From: an uncultured Nitrospira sp.
GTDB lineage: Bacteria; Nitrospirota; Nitrospiria; Nitrospirales; Nitrospiraceae
Reading direction: 5' to 3'
Assembly: GCA_964556305.1 (NCBI GenBank)
Contig: CAZKVY010000012.1
Span: 5,224-69,223, forward strand
DNA length: 64,000 bases
Below are positions 9,264 to 15,607 of this stretch, in pieces. Position numbers and translations under genes: made by a program. Within the stretch, counting starts at the first letter, position 1, and every line of letters starts with the position of its first letter. The notes beneath the pieces are model-generated. The model ran no database searches, was not told the origin of the DNA, and saw nothing but the letters and a program-made list of their open reading frames with translations.

Positions 9264-9710
9264 TCATTTCTCGCCGAATGAACGCACATACATTAGCACC
9301 TGCCAGGCCTCTTCTTCCGTCAGGACCAAGGGAATGAAGGAGGCCATATCTGTCCCGGGGCTCCCATTTTTTAGAATCCAGAATAATTCGCCGTCCGTGC
9401 GTGCCTGCTGCCACATCTTGTCCGTGAAATTTCGTGGAAGCGGGCCCTTAAACGTTGAATAGTCCAAATCCATACCTAGGCCCTTCCCATCAGCCCCATG
9501 ACAGGCACGACAGAAGGCTTTTCCTTCAAACAGAGCCTTGCCTTTCTCGCGTATGTCCGGCGTCACAGGAAACGGATTCGTCACCATCCGCGCCGATTCT
9601 CTCTGATCGATCGGCACGCGAGGACGCAACACCTCGGAATCCGCTGGCCAGGCCGCGGCCCCCATGCCGACAAAAGCCCAGGCAAGAAGAAAGAGGCGTC
9701 CGGCTTTCAT
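9264..9710 (-). CDS. Periplasmic monoheme cytochrome c
   Basis: Signal peptide, CRACH heme motif, PRNFT...GELFWILKNG..GTDM (Met ligand). Confidence 0.9.
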   Translation of the reverse strand: MKAGRLFLLAWAFVGMGAAAWPADSEVLRPRVPIDQRESARMVTNPFPVTPDIREKGKALFEGKAFCRACHGADGKGLGMDLDYSTFKGPLPRNFTDKMWQQARTDGELFWILKNGSPGTDMASFIPLVLTEEEAWQVLMYVRSFGEK

Positions 9711-9797
9711 CCCAGCATCTTCCTTTCTACAAAAAATCACAGGCGGAGAAGGCACAGAAGTGTGCCCCCCCCCGCCCGGCAACTTCAGACACCCTGC

Positions 9798-10346
9798 TTA
9801 CTCAGTTCGATGCTTGTGCCCAACGGACTGTGGATGCCCTACTTCTCCATTCGGCGCCTTCGCTCCGTCCGGCCAGAGATGAAAAATGATGCCGTCGGTC
9901 TTCGCCGCGACCGCAGCAACTTCTTTGGCCTGCGCATCCGGCATATCCAGAATCTGAACACGACCGGTGGCAATTTCCACCTCATGATCGTGGTAGTACT
10001 TATTCCAGATGTCCAACGGAACATGAGCCCGCGAGACGGACTTCGCCACAAAGTATTCGATGTCGGTCAGCAAGGCGTTCGAATCCGTTGATTCAAATAA
10101 TAAGCACTGCAAGATCTCAGGTGAGATCGGCTTACAATAGTGATGATACGGACCATGTACCGACCCGTCTTCAAATTTATGAGGGGCCATCACGTGGATG
10201 GTATACCCCTGGGCGGGTGTCGGCATGGCCTTCGCCGCCGCCGGAGCAGCCGCGGCCGTGGACTTTCTTTCGTGGGACGTTTCGGCACAGCCGGCAACCG
10301 TAAAAGCAGCCGCGCACAACCCGATCATCGCAATCGCATTTCGCAT
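9798..10346 (-). CDS. DUF1264/OBAP-like His-rich lipoprotein (paralogue 1)
   Basis: Lipobox VAGC; HHYC...QCLLFES...EY...HDHEVE...HLW pattern matches the DUF1264 family as recalled; RBS AAGGAGG. Confidence 0.75.
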   Translation of the reverse strand: MRNAIAMIGLCAAAFTVAGCAETSHERKSTAAAAPAAAKAMPTPAQGYTIHVMAPHKFEDGSVHGPYHHYCKPISPEILQCLLFESTDSNALLTDIEYFVAKSVSRAHVPLDIWNKYYHDHEVEIATGRVQILDMPDAQAKEVAAVAAKTDGIIFHLWPDGAKAPNGEVGHPQSVGHKHRTE

Positions 10347-10399
10347 AATGGCCTCCTTACCACAGGTCAACAGATCGCCGATCTCTCATACAAGCACTA

Positions 10400-10906
10400 T
10401 TATTCCGTCCTGGGCTTATGTCCTACAGACGTGGGATGCCCGACCGATCCGTCAGGGGCTTTCGCACCTTTAGGCCATAAATGAAAGATGATACCGTCTG
10501 TTTTGGCTGCGGCCGCAGCAACTTCTTTGGCCTGCGCATCCGGCATGTCCAGCACCTGAACACGACCTGTGGCAATTTCTACTTCGTGATCGTGATAGAA
10601 CTTGTTCCACACATCGAGTGGTACCGCGGAGCGGGAAACGGGTTTCGCCACGAAGTACTCCACATCGGTCAACACAGCATTGGGCTCAGTCGACTCGAAC
10701 AGCAGACACTGCAAAACCTCGGGCTTAATCGCTTTGCAGTAGTGATGGAAAGGACCGGCCACCGATCCATCTTCCATCTTGTGCGGGGCCATCACGTGAA
10801 TATCGAATCCGTCGGCCGGACCCGCCTTCATATCCGCGGCCGATACTGGCCCGCCGATGGCGAGCGCCAGCGTGCTCGCACCAAGCACGCAAAGATGTCG
10901 AAACAT
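10400..10906 (-). CDS. DUF1264/OBAP-like His-rich periplasmic protein (paralogue 2)
   Basis: Sec signal (…GGPVSA-AD); same motifs and highly similar to 9798-10346; RBS AGGAGG. Confidence 0.75.
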   Translation of the reverse strand: MFRHLCVLGASTLALAIGGPVSAADMKAGPADGFDIHVMAPHKMEDGSVAGPFHHYCKAIKPEVLQCLLFESTEPNAVLTDVEYFVAKPVSRSAVPLDVWNKFYHDHEVEIATGRVQVLDMPDAQAKEVAAAAAKTDGIIFHLWPKGAKAPDGSVGHPTSVGHKPRTE

Positions 10907-11017
10907 AACAGGCCTCCTCTGGTTGGGGTTGGAATGCGTTGATGTGTCTTATCGACAGACCGATCCATCGTGCCTCTCTGCCCGTAAGAGTCACCGCCGT
11001 CAGAAAGGATTCGCGTT

Positions 11018-12094
11018 TTATTTCGGCAACTTCGGCATGCTGAACTTTATCGGCTCTCCCGTCAACGCCTTCAGGAACATCACGAGATCAACTTTCTCGT
11101 CCGCCGTCAAATTCAGCGGGTGCACGAGCGGACTGAGAGTGGGATTGCTGCCGCCTCCCTGGTCTAAGAATTCGACGACTTCCTCCAAAGTCTTGAAGGC
11201 ACCGTCGTGCATGTAGGGAGCAGTTTCGGTAACACTGCGAAGAGTGGGGGTTTTGAACGCCCGTTTGTCATTCTCCGCCCTGCTGACAGTGTAACGTCCC
11301 AGATCCTCTTTCATCGGCCCTACTTGAGGAACACCGAGATTGTGGAATTGGTTGTCTGTAAAGTTCGCCCCGTTGTGACACAGAATACATCGGGCCTTCC
11401 CTTTGAAAAGACTCAACCCTCGGACCGCCGCTTCATCCATAGCCTTTGCATCGCCGAGCACATATTTATCAAAAGCGGAATTCGTGGATAGTACCGTACG
11501 CTCATAGGCGGCGATTGCCTCGGCAATGCCCTGTAAATTGACGTCCGTCCCGAAGACGGCTCGGAATTGTTGTTGATAGCCCTTGATCTTTCCCAGTTTG
11601 GTCACCACATGTTCGTGAGTCTCCGCCATCTCAACAGGGTTATGAATCGGCCCGATCGCTTGCTCTTCCAACGACCGCGCGCGGCCGTCCCAGAATTGCA
11701 CCTGATTAAATCCCGTGTTGTAGACGGTCGGCGATTGGCGACCGCCGACGCCACCGCCTACGCCAATGGACGTCTGCCGGGAGTCCGCAAATCCAGTCCC
11801 CGGGTTATGACAAAACGCGCAGGAGATCGCGTTATTTTTTGATAGGCGTCCGTCAAAATAGAGCTGCTTTCCAAGCTCAAGTTTCGCCGCGTAGTTCACG
11901 TTCGAGGACGGGGTGGGAACCACCGTCGGCAGTGGCCCGATATCAGGCACTGCTATGCCGCCGATGGTCACCGTTCCGTGAGGCGCGTATCCGGAAGGTG
12001 AGGCACCCACGAGACTCTCGCCGATCCCAAATGCAGAGACACCCAACAGCACGAGGATACAGCAGAGCGGCAAAACCATTCGCACCATATACAT
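11018..12094 (-). CDS. Diheme bCcP/MauG-family protein
   Basis: CAFCH and CILCH heme motifs, PTVYN, QFWDGRA, NPVEM, FKTPTLR, APYMHDG; N-terminal signal. Confidence 0.9.
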   Translation of the reverse strand: MYMVRMVLPLCCILVLLGVSAFGIGESLVGASPSGYAPHGTVTIGGIAVPDIGPLPTVVPTPSSNVNYAAKLELGKQLYFDGRLSKNNAISCAFCHNPGTGFADSRQTSIGVGGGVGGRQSPTVYNTGFNQVQFWDGRARSLEEQAIGPIHNPVEMAETHEHVVTKLGKIKGYQQQFRAVFGTDVNLQGIAEAIAAYERTVLSTNSAFDKYVLGDAKAMDEAAVRGLSLFKGKARCILCHNGANFTDNQFHNLGVPQVGPMKEDLGRYTVSRAENDKRAFKTPTLRSVTETAPYMHDGAFKTLEEVVEFLDQGGGSNPTLSPLVHPLNLTADEKVDLVMFLKALTGEPIKFSMPKLPK

Positions 12095-12256: not shown

Positions 12257-12850
12257 CTAGCGCATGGTGGAGCGCATGAGACTATCGGCTTGCGGAGGAA
12301 GAAATCCCTGATACCCTTCATGCCGTTCGGCGAGTTCGAGTACCGAAAAGGGCTGTCCGTCAATCATCTCAGGAGCAGTAAAAATCTGCCGCAGGGGGCC
12401 TCCGCGCGCGCCGACGATTTCGCCGGCAAAGACCACGCCCTTTGATTTTAGTTTAAGGATTGCCTGCTCGATATTCTCCACTCTCACTGCCACATGATGA
12501 AACACACGATCGCCGAACTTCTCCACCCAACGCGGAATGATGCTGGTCTGACCCCGAGCGTCCGGATAAGCCTGGTCGACAAACAAGGCCGGATATCCGG
12601 CTTTCCTGAAAACTTTTGCATACCAATCGTCGTAATAAATCGTTTCATCGTATTCATACCCGAGGGCGATGAACTCCTCCGCCCGGTGATCGATGTTCAT
12701 GGTTCGGATGGTTAAGTGATCCATTACCGGCACAAACCCAACGCCAATGTCGTCCAGTGCGCGACGAAGCATTCCGGCCGCGCTATTTTGTGAGAGGAAT
12801 TCAGCCGTCATTCGTGCAATGATGGCATCAAGCTCAGCGGCTTGCCCCAT
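12257..12850 (-). CDS. VOC/glyoxalase-fold metalloprotein (His/His/Glu), HglS/HPPD-like candidate
   Basis: DHLTIRT, FHHVAVRV and LELAER motifs; RBS AAGGAGG; start overlaps the ALDH stop. Confidence 0.65.
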   Translation of the reverse strand: MGQAAELDAIIARMTAEFLSQNSAAGMLRRALDDIGVGFVPVMDHLTIRTMNIDHRAEEFIALGYEYDETIYYDDWYAKVFRKAGYPALFVDQAYPDARGQTSIIPRWVEKFGDRVFHHVAVRVENIEQAILKLKSKGVVFAGEIVGARGGPLRQIFTAPEMIDGQPFSVLELAERHEGYQGFLPPQADSLMRSTMR

Positions 12851-14390
12851 GGGTCCCTCCTTCCGCCTGCCCAAAAGTGATACCCTGCGCCAACGGCAAT
12901 TCAGTCCCCCAATTGATGGTCGTGGTCTGGCGTCGCATGTAGGCCTTCCAGGAGTCAGATCCCGCCTCACGCCCGCCGCCTGTGCTCTTCTCTCCGCCGA
13001 ATGCTCCGCCGATCTCCGCACCGGAGGTGCCGATGTTGATATTGGCAATGCCGCAATCGCTTCCCGCCGTCGACAGGAATGTCTCGCTATGGCGAAGATG
13101 AGTGGTAAACAGCGCAGACGATAGACCCTGAGGAACGGCATTCTGCATTTGAATGGCTTCATCCAGGGTTCGATACGTCATGACGTACAAGATCGGCGCA
13201 AACGTTTCCTGCTGAACAATCTCCCAATGATTCTGGGCTCGCACAATCGTGGGTTCGACATAATATCCCGGACGGGATAACACCCGTCCTCCACAGAGCA
13301 CCTCCCCGCCGGCTTTCCTCGCCACATCGAGAGCCGATCGATAGCGCGCCACCGCTTCACCATCGATCAACGGCCCCATCATGACGTGAGGCTGAAGCGG
13401 ATCCCCGATCGTCACCTGCTCATAGGCGGAAAGGAGGCGCGGTATCAGCTTTTCACACTGGGACTCCTGCACAATCAGACGCCGGGTGCTGGTACAGCGC
13501 TGTCCCGCGGTGCCGACGGCGCCGAAGACAATCGCTCTGGTGGCCAAGTCGAGATCGGCGGTCTCATCGACAATGATGGCATTGTTCCCACTCAGTTCCA
13601 GCAAACTCCTCCCCAGGCGCCGCCCGACCACCTCCGCCACATGCCGTCCCACCGGCACAGATCCGGTAAATGAGATCAGCGGAAGTCGTTCATCCCCAAG
13701 CATGCGCTCGGCCAGTTCAATCCGATCCGTCGTGAACAGCCCGAACACACCTGGGTATCCCGCCTCTTCCATGACGCGATTGCAGAGATGCTGTATGGCT
13801 AACGCGCAGAGCGGCGCTTTCGGCGACGGTTTCCACAACACCGTATTTCCCGCCACGGCCGCGATAAACGCATTCCAGGCCCAGACCGCAAGTGGAAAGT
13901 TGAACGCGGTGATCACGCCTATTACGCCCAACGGATGCCATTGTTCATACATTCGGTGCTGCGGCCGTTCCGAGTGCATGGTATGTCCATACAGCATGCG
14001 GGAAAGCCCCACGGCGAAATCCGCCATGTCGATCATCTCCTGCACTTCACCATCGCCCTCAGCTTTGATCTTCCCCACTTCGAGCGAGATCAGGCTGCCG
14101 AGGGCATCCTTTTGTTCTCTCAATGCGTGCCCGATCAGACGAATTACCTCGCCGCGTTTGGGGACCGGAACCGTCCGCCAAGACCGATATGTCTGCTGAA
14201 GGCTGGTCAACAAGGCGTCGTAATCTTCATCGGAGCACCCATACACGCGAGCTAGGGGCATTCCTGTCGCTGGATTGTGGGATTCCATTACCCCAGCCTG
14301 CGTCGTACGCGTCCAGGCTGAGGACGAACAGCCTCCTCCCGACTGTTGCTGAGCCAAACCCAACCGTTTGAATAATTCTTGTGTGGTCAT
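12834..14390 (-). CDS. Aldehyde dehydrogenase family 7 (piperideine-6-carboxylate / aminoadipate-semialdehyde dehydrogenase)
   Basis: TAFNFP, WKPS, FTGS, LELSGN, GTAGQRCT (catalytic Cys), ETFAPIL, GAEIGGAFGGEK.TGGGRE.GSDSWK.YM, typical of ALDH7. Confidence 0.9.
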   Translation of the reverse strand: MTTQELFKRLGLAQQQSGGGCSSSAWTRTTQAGVMESHNPATGMPLARVYGCSDEDYDALLTSLQQTYRSWRTVPVPKRGEVIRLIGHALREQKDALGSLISLEVGKIKAEGDGEVQEMIDMADFAVGLSRMLYGHTMHSERPQHRMYEQWHPLGVIGVITAFNFPLAVWAWNAFIAAVAGNTVLWKPSPKAPLCALAIQHLCNRVMEEAGYPGVFGLFTTDRIELAERMLGDERLPLISFTGSVPVGRHVAEVVGRRLGRSLLELSGNNAIIVDETADLDLATRAIVFGAVGTAGQRCTSTRRLIVQESQCEKLIPRLLSAYEQVTIGDPLQPHVMMGPLIDGEAVARYRSALDVARKAGGEVLCGGRVLSRPGYYVEPTIVRAQNHWEIVQQETFAPILYVMTYRTLDEAIQMQNAVPQGLSSALFTTHLRHSETFLSTAGSDCGIANINIGTSGAEIGGAFGGEKSTGGGREAGSDSWKAYMRRQTTTINWGTELPLAQGITFGQAEGGTHGASR

Positions 14391-14395
14391 TTCAT

Positions 14396-15487
14396 CTAGG
14401 AACGGAAACAGTCCCCGAAGCGATTGTCCAACACGTCCTGCAAGTGAAAATGTTCCTGCCTGATGAAGCCCCGATAGGCTGAGGGCTTGGCCATCACCAG
14501 ATCAAGCACGCAACAAAGGGATGACGCGGTGGTGACTTGAATCGCAGACCATGTACGTCCGAACATCGTTCGTGGATACACTTTCTTCACGTAAGTCTCC
14601 TCAAACAACTCACCCTGCCGGGTACCCGTGACAGCCGCGTACATCAACACCACATCCTGATGCGTCTGCGGAATCGCCCGCTCCAGGATCCGCTTGAGCG
14701 TCTCCCGGTCCTCGTTCAGCTTGAGATCGTTCATGAGAAATTGGATTTTTTCGCAATGGCCGGGGTACCGGAGGGTCTTGTAATTCATCGTTCGGACCCG
14801 GCCACGATAGGTGTCTGCTAAGGTGCCCAGTCCGCCGGAGGTGTTGAACGCTTCGTAGAGCAGACCGTCCAATTCAATCGTCTCGTATCCTTCCAGAGGC
14901 CTCAGGTGGACATCCTGCCCGCCTTCAATCCCGACGCACACGTTGCCGTACTCATTCAGCAACCCGTCGGTAGACCACGTCAGGGAATACTTTAAGGCAT
15001 TGCTCGGGTGGACCGGGAGCGCGCCCACACGCATCTTGACGTTGTCGATGGATTCGAAGTGGCCGATGAGGTCGTTCGTAACGATGCTGATAAAGCCCGG
15101 AGCCAAACCGCACTGAGGAAGAAACGCCCGATCGGCGCCCTCGCTAATCGCCTTGACGCGGCCGGTCACGGCCACGTCTTCGGTCAGGTCGAAATAGTGA
15201 AGATGATGAGCTCGCGCAATCTCGGCGACAGCCGGATTATAAAAATACGGCAGACTCGAGATAACAGCATCAAAGCGGTGCGAATTAACATAGGCGACCA
15301 CAGAGTCGGGTCGGCGTAGATCCAATGCGCAGGGAGTGACCGTCGAAAGCGTCAGGGCATCGATCAATCGTTTTGGTGCATCAAGGGTGATATCGGCCAG
15401 ATGCACCTGGTACTGCCCCATGGCCGACAGCAGCCCTGCAACGAGAGACCCGATTTTCCCGCATCCGAGCACCAATACCTGAGGCAT
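14396..15487 (-). CDS. Saccharopine dehydrogenase-family protein, probably lysine 6-dehydrogenase-like
   Basis: GCGKIG Rossmann motif, HYFDLTED, CGLAPG, LKYSLTWSTDGLLNEY, YKTLRYPGH; directly upstream of the ALDH7 gene. Confidence 0.8.
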   Translation of the reverse strand: MPQVLVLGCGKIGSLVAGLLSAMGQYQVHLADITLDAPKRLIDALTLSTVTPCALDLRRPDSVVAYVNSHRFDAVISSLPYFYNPAVAEIARAHHLHYFDLTEDVAVTGRVKAISEGADRAFLPQCGLAPGFISIVTNDLIGHFESIDNVKMRVGALPVHPSNALKYSLTWSTDGLLNEYGNVCVGIEGGQDVHLRPLEGYETIELDGLLYEAFNTSGGLGTLADTYRGRVRTMNYKTLRYPGHCEKIQFLMNDLKLNEDRETLKRILERAIPQTHQDVVLMYAAVTGTRQGELFEETYVKKVYPRTMFGRTWSAIQVTTASSLCCVLDLVMAKPSAYRGFIRQEHFHLQDVLDNRFGDCFRS

Positions 15488-15607
15488 CCGTCACCTCATG
15501 CTCATTATACTCTTTCAGATTCAAATCACGAGACTTTATGAGCGCAGCTGATGGATGACAAAAGACGGGTGTGCACAACAAACAGACGTATCGGAATGGG
15601 GGCCGGA

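Follow-up and report, generated by a model that had tools for sequence, protein, structure and literature searches.

A compact VOC protein encoded beside lysine-to-2-aminoadipate genes in Nitrospira is a candidate HglS-like oxygenase

The 64,000-nucleotide (nt) stretch of DNA analysed here (the window; contig CAZKVY010000012.1 of assembly GCA_964556305.1, from an uncultured, nitrite-oxidising Nitrospira sp.) encodes on its minus strand, at positions 12257–12850, a VOC protein of 197 amino acids (aa), designated P0001. From its sequence, predicted structure, and gene context, P0001 would be a Fe(II)- and O2-dependent synthase that converts 2-oxoadipate to D-2-hydroxyglutarate, as HglS does, a reading to which we assign a probability of about 0.6. 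The broader claim, that P0001 belongs to the class of 2-oxoacid oxygenases formed by HPPD, hydroxymandelate synthase (HMS), and HglS, is held with considerably greater confidence. An earlier interpretation made from the sequence alone (the sequence-only reading) had proposed an HglS-like function, and it gains support from the ranking of structural matches, from sequence profiles, and from the operon context. The closest relatives of P0001 are labelled Nitrospira, and the orthologues of the cultured N. defluvii and N. moscoviensis have 82–85% identity. P0001 and its short homologues are referred to below as mini-VOC proteins.

Predicted structure

A model of P0001 was generated with AlphaFold2 (AF2) from an alignment of 47 diverse sequences (28–85% identity; predicted local distance difference test [pLDDT], 95.3; predicted template modelling score [pTM], 0.90). 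The model consists of two N-terminal helices, eight strands arranged in two beta-alpha-beta-beta-beta modules, and one C-terminal helix, such that the only elements outside of the VOC core are these three helices and the large helical insertions of HglS are absent. His45 is located on strand 1, His119 on strand 5, and Glu172 on strand 8 of the AF2 secondary structure. Because a single chain supplies all eight strands bearing the three candidate ligands, the model indicates that oligomerisation, which had been suggested for a protein this small, is not needed to build the metal site. A first AF2 model, based on 23 sequences with 72–98% identity, was discarded (pLDDT, 63; disordered C-terminal half).

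When the model was compared to the PDB using Foldseek, the first-ranked structure was the DUF1338 protein 3LHO (E = 5e-10; TM-score [TM], 0.76), followed at ranks 2–5 by human HPPD, the rice HglS FLO7 with bound 2-oxoadipate (6W1K; TM, 0.72–0.77), HMS, and the DUF1338 protein 3IUZ. Overall, the three DUF1338 structures (3LHO, 6W1K, and 3IUZ) had query TM values of 0.68–0.77, while HPPD and HMS structures occupied ranks 2, 4, 6, and following. Methylmalonyl-CoA epimerases (MCE) and glyoxalases ranked later and matched over the VOC core only (query TM, ~0.5). DUF1338/HglS, HPPD, and HMS structures therefore all outrank those of MCE and glyoxalase, and the outcome that would have spoken against the sequence-only reading, a best match to one of the latter, was not seen.

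Sequence homology and candidate active site

The three motifs named by the sequence-only reading, DHLTIRT, HHVAV, and LELAER, can be read directly from the translation of the 197-aa open reading frame (ORF) at residues 44–50, 118–122, and 171–176, respectively. Together with a C-terminal tail motif, they define the following features within the gene:

12701..12721, minus strand: DHLTIRT, residues 44–50, with His45 and Arg49 (alignment to 3LHO/FLO7; conservation)
12485..12499, minus strand: HHVAV, residues 118–122, with His119 (alignment to (Q)HIAL of HPPD; model strand 119–123)
12323..12340, minus strand: LELAER, residues 171–176, with Glu172 and Arg176 (alignment to FLEVIQR of HPPD; compare GEIEQR of YdcJ)
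12275..12313, minus strand: C-terminal tail YQGFLPPQADSLM, residues 180–192 (model helix 185–194; alignment to HPPD GFGAGNFKALF and YdcJ YEDFLPVSAAGIF)

A family profile constructed from 29 diverse members had its strongest match to HPPD (1e-12), through the C-terminal half and the tail, where the motifs of the HPPD/HMS C-terminal domain recur with the same spacing (HH-IA for QH-IA, LRQIFT for LLQIFT, LE..ER for the F.E.IQR pattern [FLEVIQR], and GF....LM for the GFG.GNF..LF pattern [GFGAGNF..LF]). Other matches of the profile were to MCE (3e-11, over the whole VOC core), 3LHO (1e-7), and 6W1K/FLO7 (9e-6). When the N-terminal half was searched as a separate profile against the PDB, the significant matches were to DUF1338 proteins only (3LHO, 1.2e-6; FLO7 6W1K, 3e-4), in an alignment that spans both N-terminal helices and places DH(L/I)T(F/I)RT on DHIALRT of 3LHO and DHFAFRT of FLO7. 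As the N-terminal half matches DUF1338 only, while the C-terminal half and tail follow motifs of HPPD and YdcJ, P0001 looks like a fusion of the N-terminal half of a DUF1338 protein with a C-terminal half of the HPPD type, stripped of all helical insertions.

In these profile alignments, His45, His119, and Glu172 coincide with the metal ligands of DUF1338 and HPPD, which agrees with the His/His/Glu triad proposed from the sequence alone and points to these residues as putative metal ligands 1, 2, and 3. A further residue that the sequence-only reading had not singled out, Arg49, is located four positions after the first His (His+4), where FLO7 and HglS have the Arg that binds the substrate. 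This residue, Arg64 in FLO7 and Arg74 in HglS, contacts the distal carboxylate of 2-oxoadipate through a salt bridge, and the R74A variant is inactive (PMC7286885); Arg49 would thus be the predicted binder of the distal carboxylate in P0001. The same study reported that Val402 and Ser403 of HglS, on a mobile loop, contact the substrate and that HglS accepted only 2-oxoadipate (PMC7286885). HglS was crystallised with Ni, which is inhibitory. Judging from the sequence of E. coli YdcJ, Val402 and Ser403 would lie in the FLPVS motif of the tail. YdcJ displays the same four elements (RH68GAIR72, INH224LTPRT, GE290IEQR, and YEDFLPVSAAGIF), and an hhalign comparison of the family to the single YdcJ sequence aligned the tail only, YQGFLPPQADSLM on YEDFLPVSAAGIF, with 17% probability, a pointer to the motif and not proof of homology.

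All 142 relatives with >65% identity to P0001 have the same residue at H45, R49, H118, H119, R154, Q155, E172, and R176, and the same tail (142/142), while among 94 relatives with 45–65% identity these features are retained in 88–94 (89–94 for H45, R49, H118, H119, E172, and R176, with R49 kept in 91). Arg154 is not retained in the most distant group. Such invariance in the first set and near-invariance in the second exceeds what chance would give and is typical of an active site. In several divergent members (P0137, P0160, P0162, and P0173), a Tyr replaces the first metal His (DY..F) and in some the second His is missing as well; these may be non-catalytic offshoots.

A small family outside of current annotation

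The mini-VOC proteins constitute a small, unannotated family. Matches of P0001 to curated libraries are all sub-threshold: Pfam returned Glyoxalase_4 only (22 bits against a threshold of 27), and the HPPD model TIGR01263 scored 13.3 bits against a cut-off of 277, with a single domain present instead of two. Two of the 29 diverse relatives had weak matches to the Pfam family HGLS (PF07063), the best with E = 9.8e-5, and the orthologue in genome G281 reached 21 bits. The names given to P0001-type proteins in public records are ‘VOC family protein’, ‘hypothetical’, and ‘HPPD-like’. When 1.8 billion cluster representatives were searched exhaustively, no more than 151 matched at E ≤ 0.001, and many of these were fragments. 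Literature searches turned up no paper dealing with a shortened HglS or with the breakdown of lysine by Nitrospira. The suggestion of an unannotated miniature family therefore stands, as does the statement that characterised HglS proteins are much longer (267–460 aa for HglS/DUF1338, compared to 197 aa). As a separate observation, one 1816-aa protein among the cluster representatives (P0205) possesses 14 separate stretches that match residues 43–101 of P0001, forming a long array of half-VOC modules.

Compared to known systems, P0001 shares with HglS, YdcJ, and FLO7 the VOC core, in which it carries a putative His/His/Glu site, N-terminal helices followed by DH..xRT with the Arg at His+4, an E-x3-R arrangement after the ligand Glu, a FLP..A tail motif, and a position after lysine-to-2-aminoadipate genes. 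Unlike HglS/DUF1338, it lacks helical insertions between the strands, and the spacing of its C-terminal half follows HPPD instead. Unlike HPPD and HMS, it does not have the N-terminal structural domain, it carries the Arg at His+4, and its genomic context is that of lysine and not of tyrosine/homogentisate. The corresponding segment of P. fluorescens HPPD, with the motif IDHLTHNV, presumably has no Arg at His+4. MCE and glyoxalase I resemble P0001 in size, in the paired beta-alpha-beta-beta-beta core, and in the placement of His/His/Glu on equivalent strands, but they have neither the two helices at the N terminus nor the helix of the tail, and they lack the Arg at His+4; the cut-offs of these families are far from being reached, and the mini-VOC locus offers neither a CoA nor a glutathione context.

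Operon and gene neighbourhoods

The gene for P0001 is the last of a row of three on the minus strand, where 5 nt separate a saccharopine-dehydrogenase-family gene from the aldehyde dehydrogenase (ALDH) gene behind it, and the 3′ end of the ALDH gene overlaps the VOC gene by 17 nt. The features of the operon are as follows:

15533..15561, minus strand: promoter-like site upstream of the first gene, a weak candidate (promoter scan)
14396..15487, minus strand: saccharopine-dehydrogenase-family protein, 363 aa, probable L-lysine 6-dehydrogenase (LysDH) (Pfam; PDB match)
12834..14390, minus strand: ALDH7-type L-piperideine-6-carboxylate (P6C)/2-aminoadipate-semialdehyde dehydrogenase, 518 aa (NF050084; PDB antiquitin/2-aminoadipate-semialdehyde dehydrogenase [AASADH])
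12856..12862, minus strand: AAGGAGG, Shine-Dalgarno sequence with 5-nt spacing to the start codon at 12850, inside the end of the upstream gene (sequence)
12257..12850, minus strand: mini HglS/HPPD-like VOC gene encoding P0001 (translation, family alignments, AF2 model, and Foldseek)

The ALDH passes the equivalog model for L-piperidine-6-carboxylate dehydrogenase (NF050084, 751.7 bits; cut-off, 730) and matches antiquitin/AASADH structures in the PDB with E values down to 6e-191. Its partner possesses the Pfam domains Sacchrp_dh_NADP and Sacchrp_dh_C and has PH1688 (3ABI) as the nearest solved structure, known as the L-lysine 6-dehydrogenase of P. horikoshii; the first gene of the operon probably acts on lysine in this capacity, and the pair has the makings of a lysine-to-2-aminoadipate module. 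With its strong Shine-Dalgarno sequence in the end of the upstream gene, the VOC gene is predicted to be translationally coupled to the gene for P6C dehydrogenase (P6CDH). A longer ORF of 301 aa (12257–13162) was rejected as an artefact, because homologues start at the same Met as the 197-aa form, the ATG of which is preceded by AAGGAGG at the 5-nt spacing given above. In scans for promoters and terminators, the operon region had no more sites than shuffled sequences, and the site at 15533–15561 stays a candidate only. Directly downstream of the operon (window positions 9264–12094) are a di-haem cytochrome c peroxidase/MauG-like gene (11018–12094) and genes for two paralogous secreted proteins of 168–190 aa; the MauG-like gene is not considered part of the lysine unit because it is present in only some Nitrospira loci.

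Gene neighbourhoods were explored at the best 80 loci from a scan of genome contigs, all of them of the Nitrospira type, while more distant contexts were drawn from the encoding contigs and a metagenome scan. The LysDH-ALDH7-VOC trio was found in essentially every Nitrospira locus with sufficient flanking sequence, whereas the outer neighbours, including a PSP1-domain gene and the di-haem peroxidase, vary among loci. Of the 301 Nitrospirota genomes, 64 encode a mini-VOC, all of class Nitrospiria, and it adjoins an ALDH. In the Nitrospiraceae this neighbour is of the ALDH7 type; a second family has another kind of ALDH, with ~400 bits. Within one genus (g10), the adjacent ALDH was present in all eight VOC-positive genomes and in none of the 10 VOC-negative genomes. 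In another family of the order (genome G148), the VOC gene is the central one of the row ALDH-VOC-LysDH, and in a clade with 40% identity (P0130 and eight metagenome loci) the VOC is divergent from LysDH-ALDH. Loci L086 and L127 supply two more placements of the lysine context. On the maximum-likelihood tree, at least four separate placements are needed even when only the well-supported branches are trusted. The mini-VOC is thus found beside lysine-to-2-aminoadipate genes in at least four clades and in three gene orders. The operon argument made from this one stretch of DNA consequently holds: the same trio recurs, and other clades with other gene orders add to it.

Further, a second type of neighbour occurs on the other side of the gene. 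In 21 loci from two other clades, a flavin adenine dinucleotide (FAD)-dependent oxidase of the GlcD/D-lactate/D-2-hydroxyglutarate dehydrogenase (D2HGDH) family lies directly 3′ of the VOC gene (12–25 nt apart, or with a 4-nt overlap), with differing outer contexts. These partners are nearest to lactate and glycolate oxidases, not to D2HGDH, and appear to be generic D-2-hydroxyacid enzymes. Two very distant members follow a gene for a D-2-hydroxyacid dehydrogenase dependent on nicotinamide adenine dinucleotide (NAD), and L127, with its LysDH and ALDH, nests within a GlcD-linked clade of the tree. With producers of 2-aminoadipate on one side and oxidisers of D-2-hydroxyacids on the other, the mini-VOC would therefore hold the pathway position of HglS. 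Elsewhere in the source genome (C2:6320–9367; L089, 199–3249), a 1016-aa FAD-linked oxidase fused to a GlpC/LdhH-like iron-sulfur domain was observed, which has the architecture of the D-2-hydroxyglutarate dehydrogenase YdiJ but scores 287 bits against a cut-off of 1350.

Absence of canonical HglS and related proteins

A search with PF07063 returned nothing in the source genome (99.8% complete) and nothing above threshold in the 301 Nitrospirota genomes, where the only weak match was itself a mini-VOC. In another Nitrospirota family (genome G095; L104, 5234–11355), an ALDH7-type P6CDH is encoded in a cluster with, in this order, an L-lysine 6-transaminase (TIGR03251, 687 bits), a GlcD-like FAD oxidase, and a 456-aa protein (P0380) for which there was no match in Pfam, NCBIfam, or the PDB. 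Residues 223–447 of P0380 match the whole mini-VOC profile (hhalign probability, 96%; E = 2.9e-9). Besides the N-terminal helices, the matched region takes in DHHTFRS, MHHFAARF, and LENIERREGYKGF, with LENIER and a REGYKGF tail. As judged from its gene content, this cluster is a lysine route in which a transaminase replaces LysDH and a two-domain cousin stands in for the mini-VOC; P0380 has an extra N-terminal domain of ~220 residues and long insertions, whereas the mini-VOC corresponds to the catalytic domain alone.

The source genome also encodes, outside of the window, a second one-domain VOC protein of ~197 aa (P0379), a separate HPPD-like paralogue that reaches 87.5 bits with TIGR01263 and shares 37% identity with P0001 over the C-terminal half. 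Its motifs are VDHITLCV, VQHIALEV, LELTQR, and an ESLYRDIERDQ tail, without an Arg at His+4, and its gene is directly upstream of homogentisate-1,2-dioxygenase-like and fumarylacetoacetase genes, in what resembles a homogentisate operon with a ‘mini-HPPD’ (C11:13317–16172; L099, 2318–5173). Two domains are the rule in known HPPDs. Oxygenases of this class thus appear to serve two pathways of the organism in single-domain form. P0379 serves as an internal control, the comparison of the two paralogues suggesting that the Arg at His+4 goes with the lysine context.

Proposed reaction and alternative explanations

From the observed fold class, motif homology, conservation, and gene neighbourhoods, we infer the metal, the substrate, the product with its stereochemistry, and the two steps encoded away from the operon as follows. 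Fe(II) would be bound by His45, His119, and Glu172 and chelated by 2-oxoadipate through its 2-oxo-acid group, while Arg49 would anchor the substrate at its distal carboxylate. Driven by O2, the substrate would then be decarboxylated and hydroxylated, yielding D-2-hydroxyglutarate and CO2, with the C-terminal helix closing the site. In the proposed pathway, the operon would convert lysine to 2-aminoadipate by means of LysDH and then P6CDH, an aminotransferase encoded elsewhere would produce 2-oxoadipate, and a D-2-hydroxyacid dehydrogenase would oxidise D-2-hydroxyglutarate to 2-oxoglutarate, back in central metabolism. P0001 is homologous to the HGLS family and probably acts like it, yet lies outside of the Pfam family by score and by architecture.

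Several observations weigh against this assignment. P0001 does not match PF07063 even at E = 10 (gathering threshold, 25 bits), and its top NCBIfam match is the MCE model TIGR03081. Neither a 2-aminoadipate aminotransferase gene in the operon nor a dedicated D-2-hydroxyglutarate dehydrogenase gene linked to the VOC in Nitrospira loci was found. The 1016-aa oxidase of YdiJ architecture, the candidate for this step, occurs almost throughout the Nitrospiria, as well as in another family of the phylum (f17), with or without the VOC (301 genomes), and, being near-universal in the class and not tracking the VOC, neither supports nor refutes an HglS-type reaction. One genome (G183) possesses LysDH and P6CDH while the VOC is absent. 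Conversely, in a soil Nitrospiraceae clade (29 loci, 60–65% identical to P0001; L101 at G285:C4:190000–200000 and metagenome loci L124, L134, L140, and L149–L184), the VOC gene is immediately upstream of hflK-hflC, and genome G285 from this clade encodes neither a LysDH nor an ALDH7 homologue. Omnitrophica-labelled relatives are placed after a ferredoxin gene; the Omnitrophica are a mostly anaerobic group, an odd setting for an O2-dependent enzyme.

The soil clade, with its missing lysine genes, is among the reasons to consider that P0001 belongs to the same oxygenase class but acts on another substrate, such as an aromatic 2-oxo acid, 2-oxopimelate, 6-amino-2-oxohexanoate, or 2-oxoglutarate, from which malate would arise, and forms a different 2-hydroxy acid. 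The fold and motifs are common to HPPD and HMS as much as to HglS, the partner dehydrogenases are generic, Arg154 is lost in the most distant group, and one distant member precedes a malic enzyme gene. Set against these, P0001 has in Arg49 the residue that in DUF1338 proteins marks, at His+4, a distal carboxylate spaced as in 2-oxoadipate, and P0379 lacks it, the lysine-to-2-aminoadipate genes recur as neighbours across the clades described above, and HglS itself took no other substrate (PMC7286885), making a different substrate rather unlikely. A related and also rather unlikely proposal is that P0001, with its DUF1338-like N-terminal and HPPD-like C-terminal halves, represents a minimal catalytic unit, perhaps the ancestor that was elaborated into the DUF1338/HglS lineage on the one hand and the HPPD/HMS lineage on the other. 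At least some clades, such as the solitary soil clade or the ferredoxin-linked relatives from putatively anaerobic lineages, would then carry out a non-HglS reaction, either another 2-oxo-acid conversion or one free of O2.

An O2-independent, metal-dependent epimerase, isomerase, or lyase similar to MCE or glyoxalase I, which might racemise 2-aminoadipate or handle P6C or the semialdehyde on the lysine branch, would be more at home beside the ferredoxin gene of the Omnitrophica-labelled relatives. It would also account for TIGR03081 being the top curated model, for the family profile matching MCE over the whole core, and for MCE and glyoxalase structures fitting the VOC core about equally well per target residue (target-normalised TM [TMt], 0.65–0.75). 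The TIGR03081 score, however, is far under the cut-off (29.6 bits compared to 114.95), the two-helix N-terminal extension with DH..xRT matches DUF1338 only, and LRQIFT, LE..ER, and the GF....LM tail are features of HPPD, HMS, and YdcJ that MCE lacks. There is no CoA ligase or transferase gene nearby, and the recurring D-2-hydroxyacid dehydrogenase partners suit a 2-hydroxy-acid product, all of which makes such an activity improbable. Some VOC proteins only bind ligands, and the coupling of the VOC gene to that of P6CDH could be accommodated by a protective binder or scavenger of the semialdehyde or P6C, or by a regulatory subunit of both dehydrogenases; the few divergent relatives without the first His fit such a role. 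But the invariance of His/His/Glu, Arg49, Arg154, Gln155, and Arg176 among the 142 closer relatives and their near-invariance among the 94 others, as well as the occurrence of the VOC gene without the dehydrogenases, render a non-catalytic function very improbable. The HglS-like synthase of 2-oxoadipate catabolism is accordingly the preferred reading, and the mini-VOC proteins probably add a new, compact family to an enzyme class that is already known.

Implications

The conversion of 2-oxoadipate to D-2-hydroxyglutarate was reportedly discovered in 2019–2020, and to our knowledge the step is currently assigned by way of one Pfam family only (HGLS/DUF1338). The class Nitrospiria, which includes key nitrifiers, possesses lysine-to-2-aminoadipate genes without an HGLS gene, and has in its place a protein of less than half the size. 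Should the proposed function be correct, it would complete a path from lysine to 2-oxoglutarate in bacteria that are considered chemolithoautotrophs and would provide a missing marker for pathway-reconstruction tools. P0001 would then be the smallest known scaffold of an HPPD/HMS/HglS oxygenase, useful for work on mechanism and structure and for the engineering of D-2-hydroxyglutarate and glutarate production, and would link two enzyme families hitherto related by structure alone.

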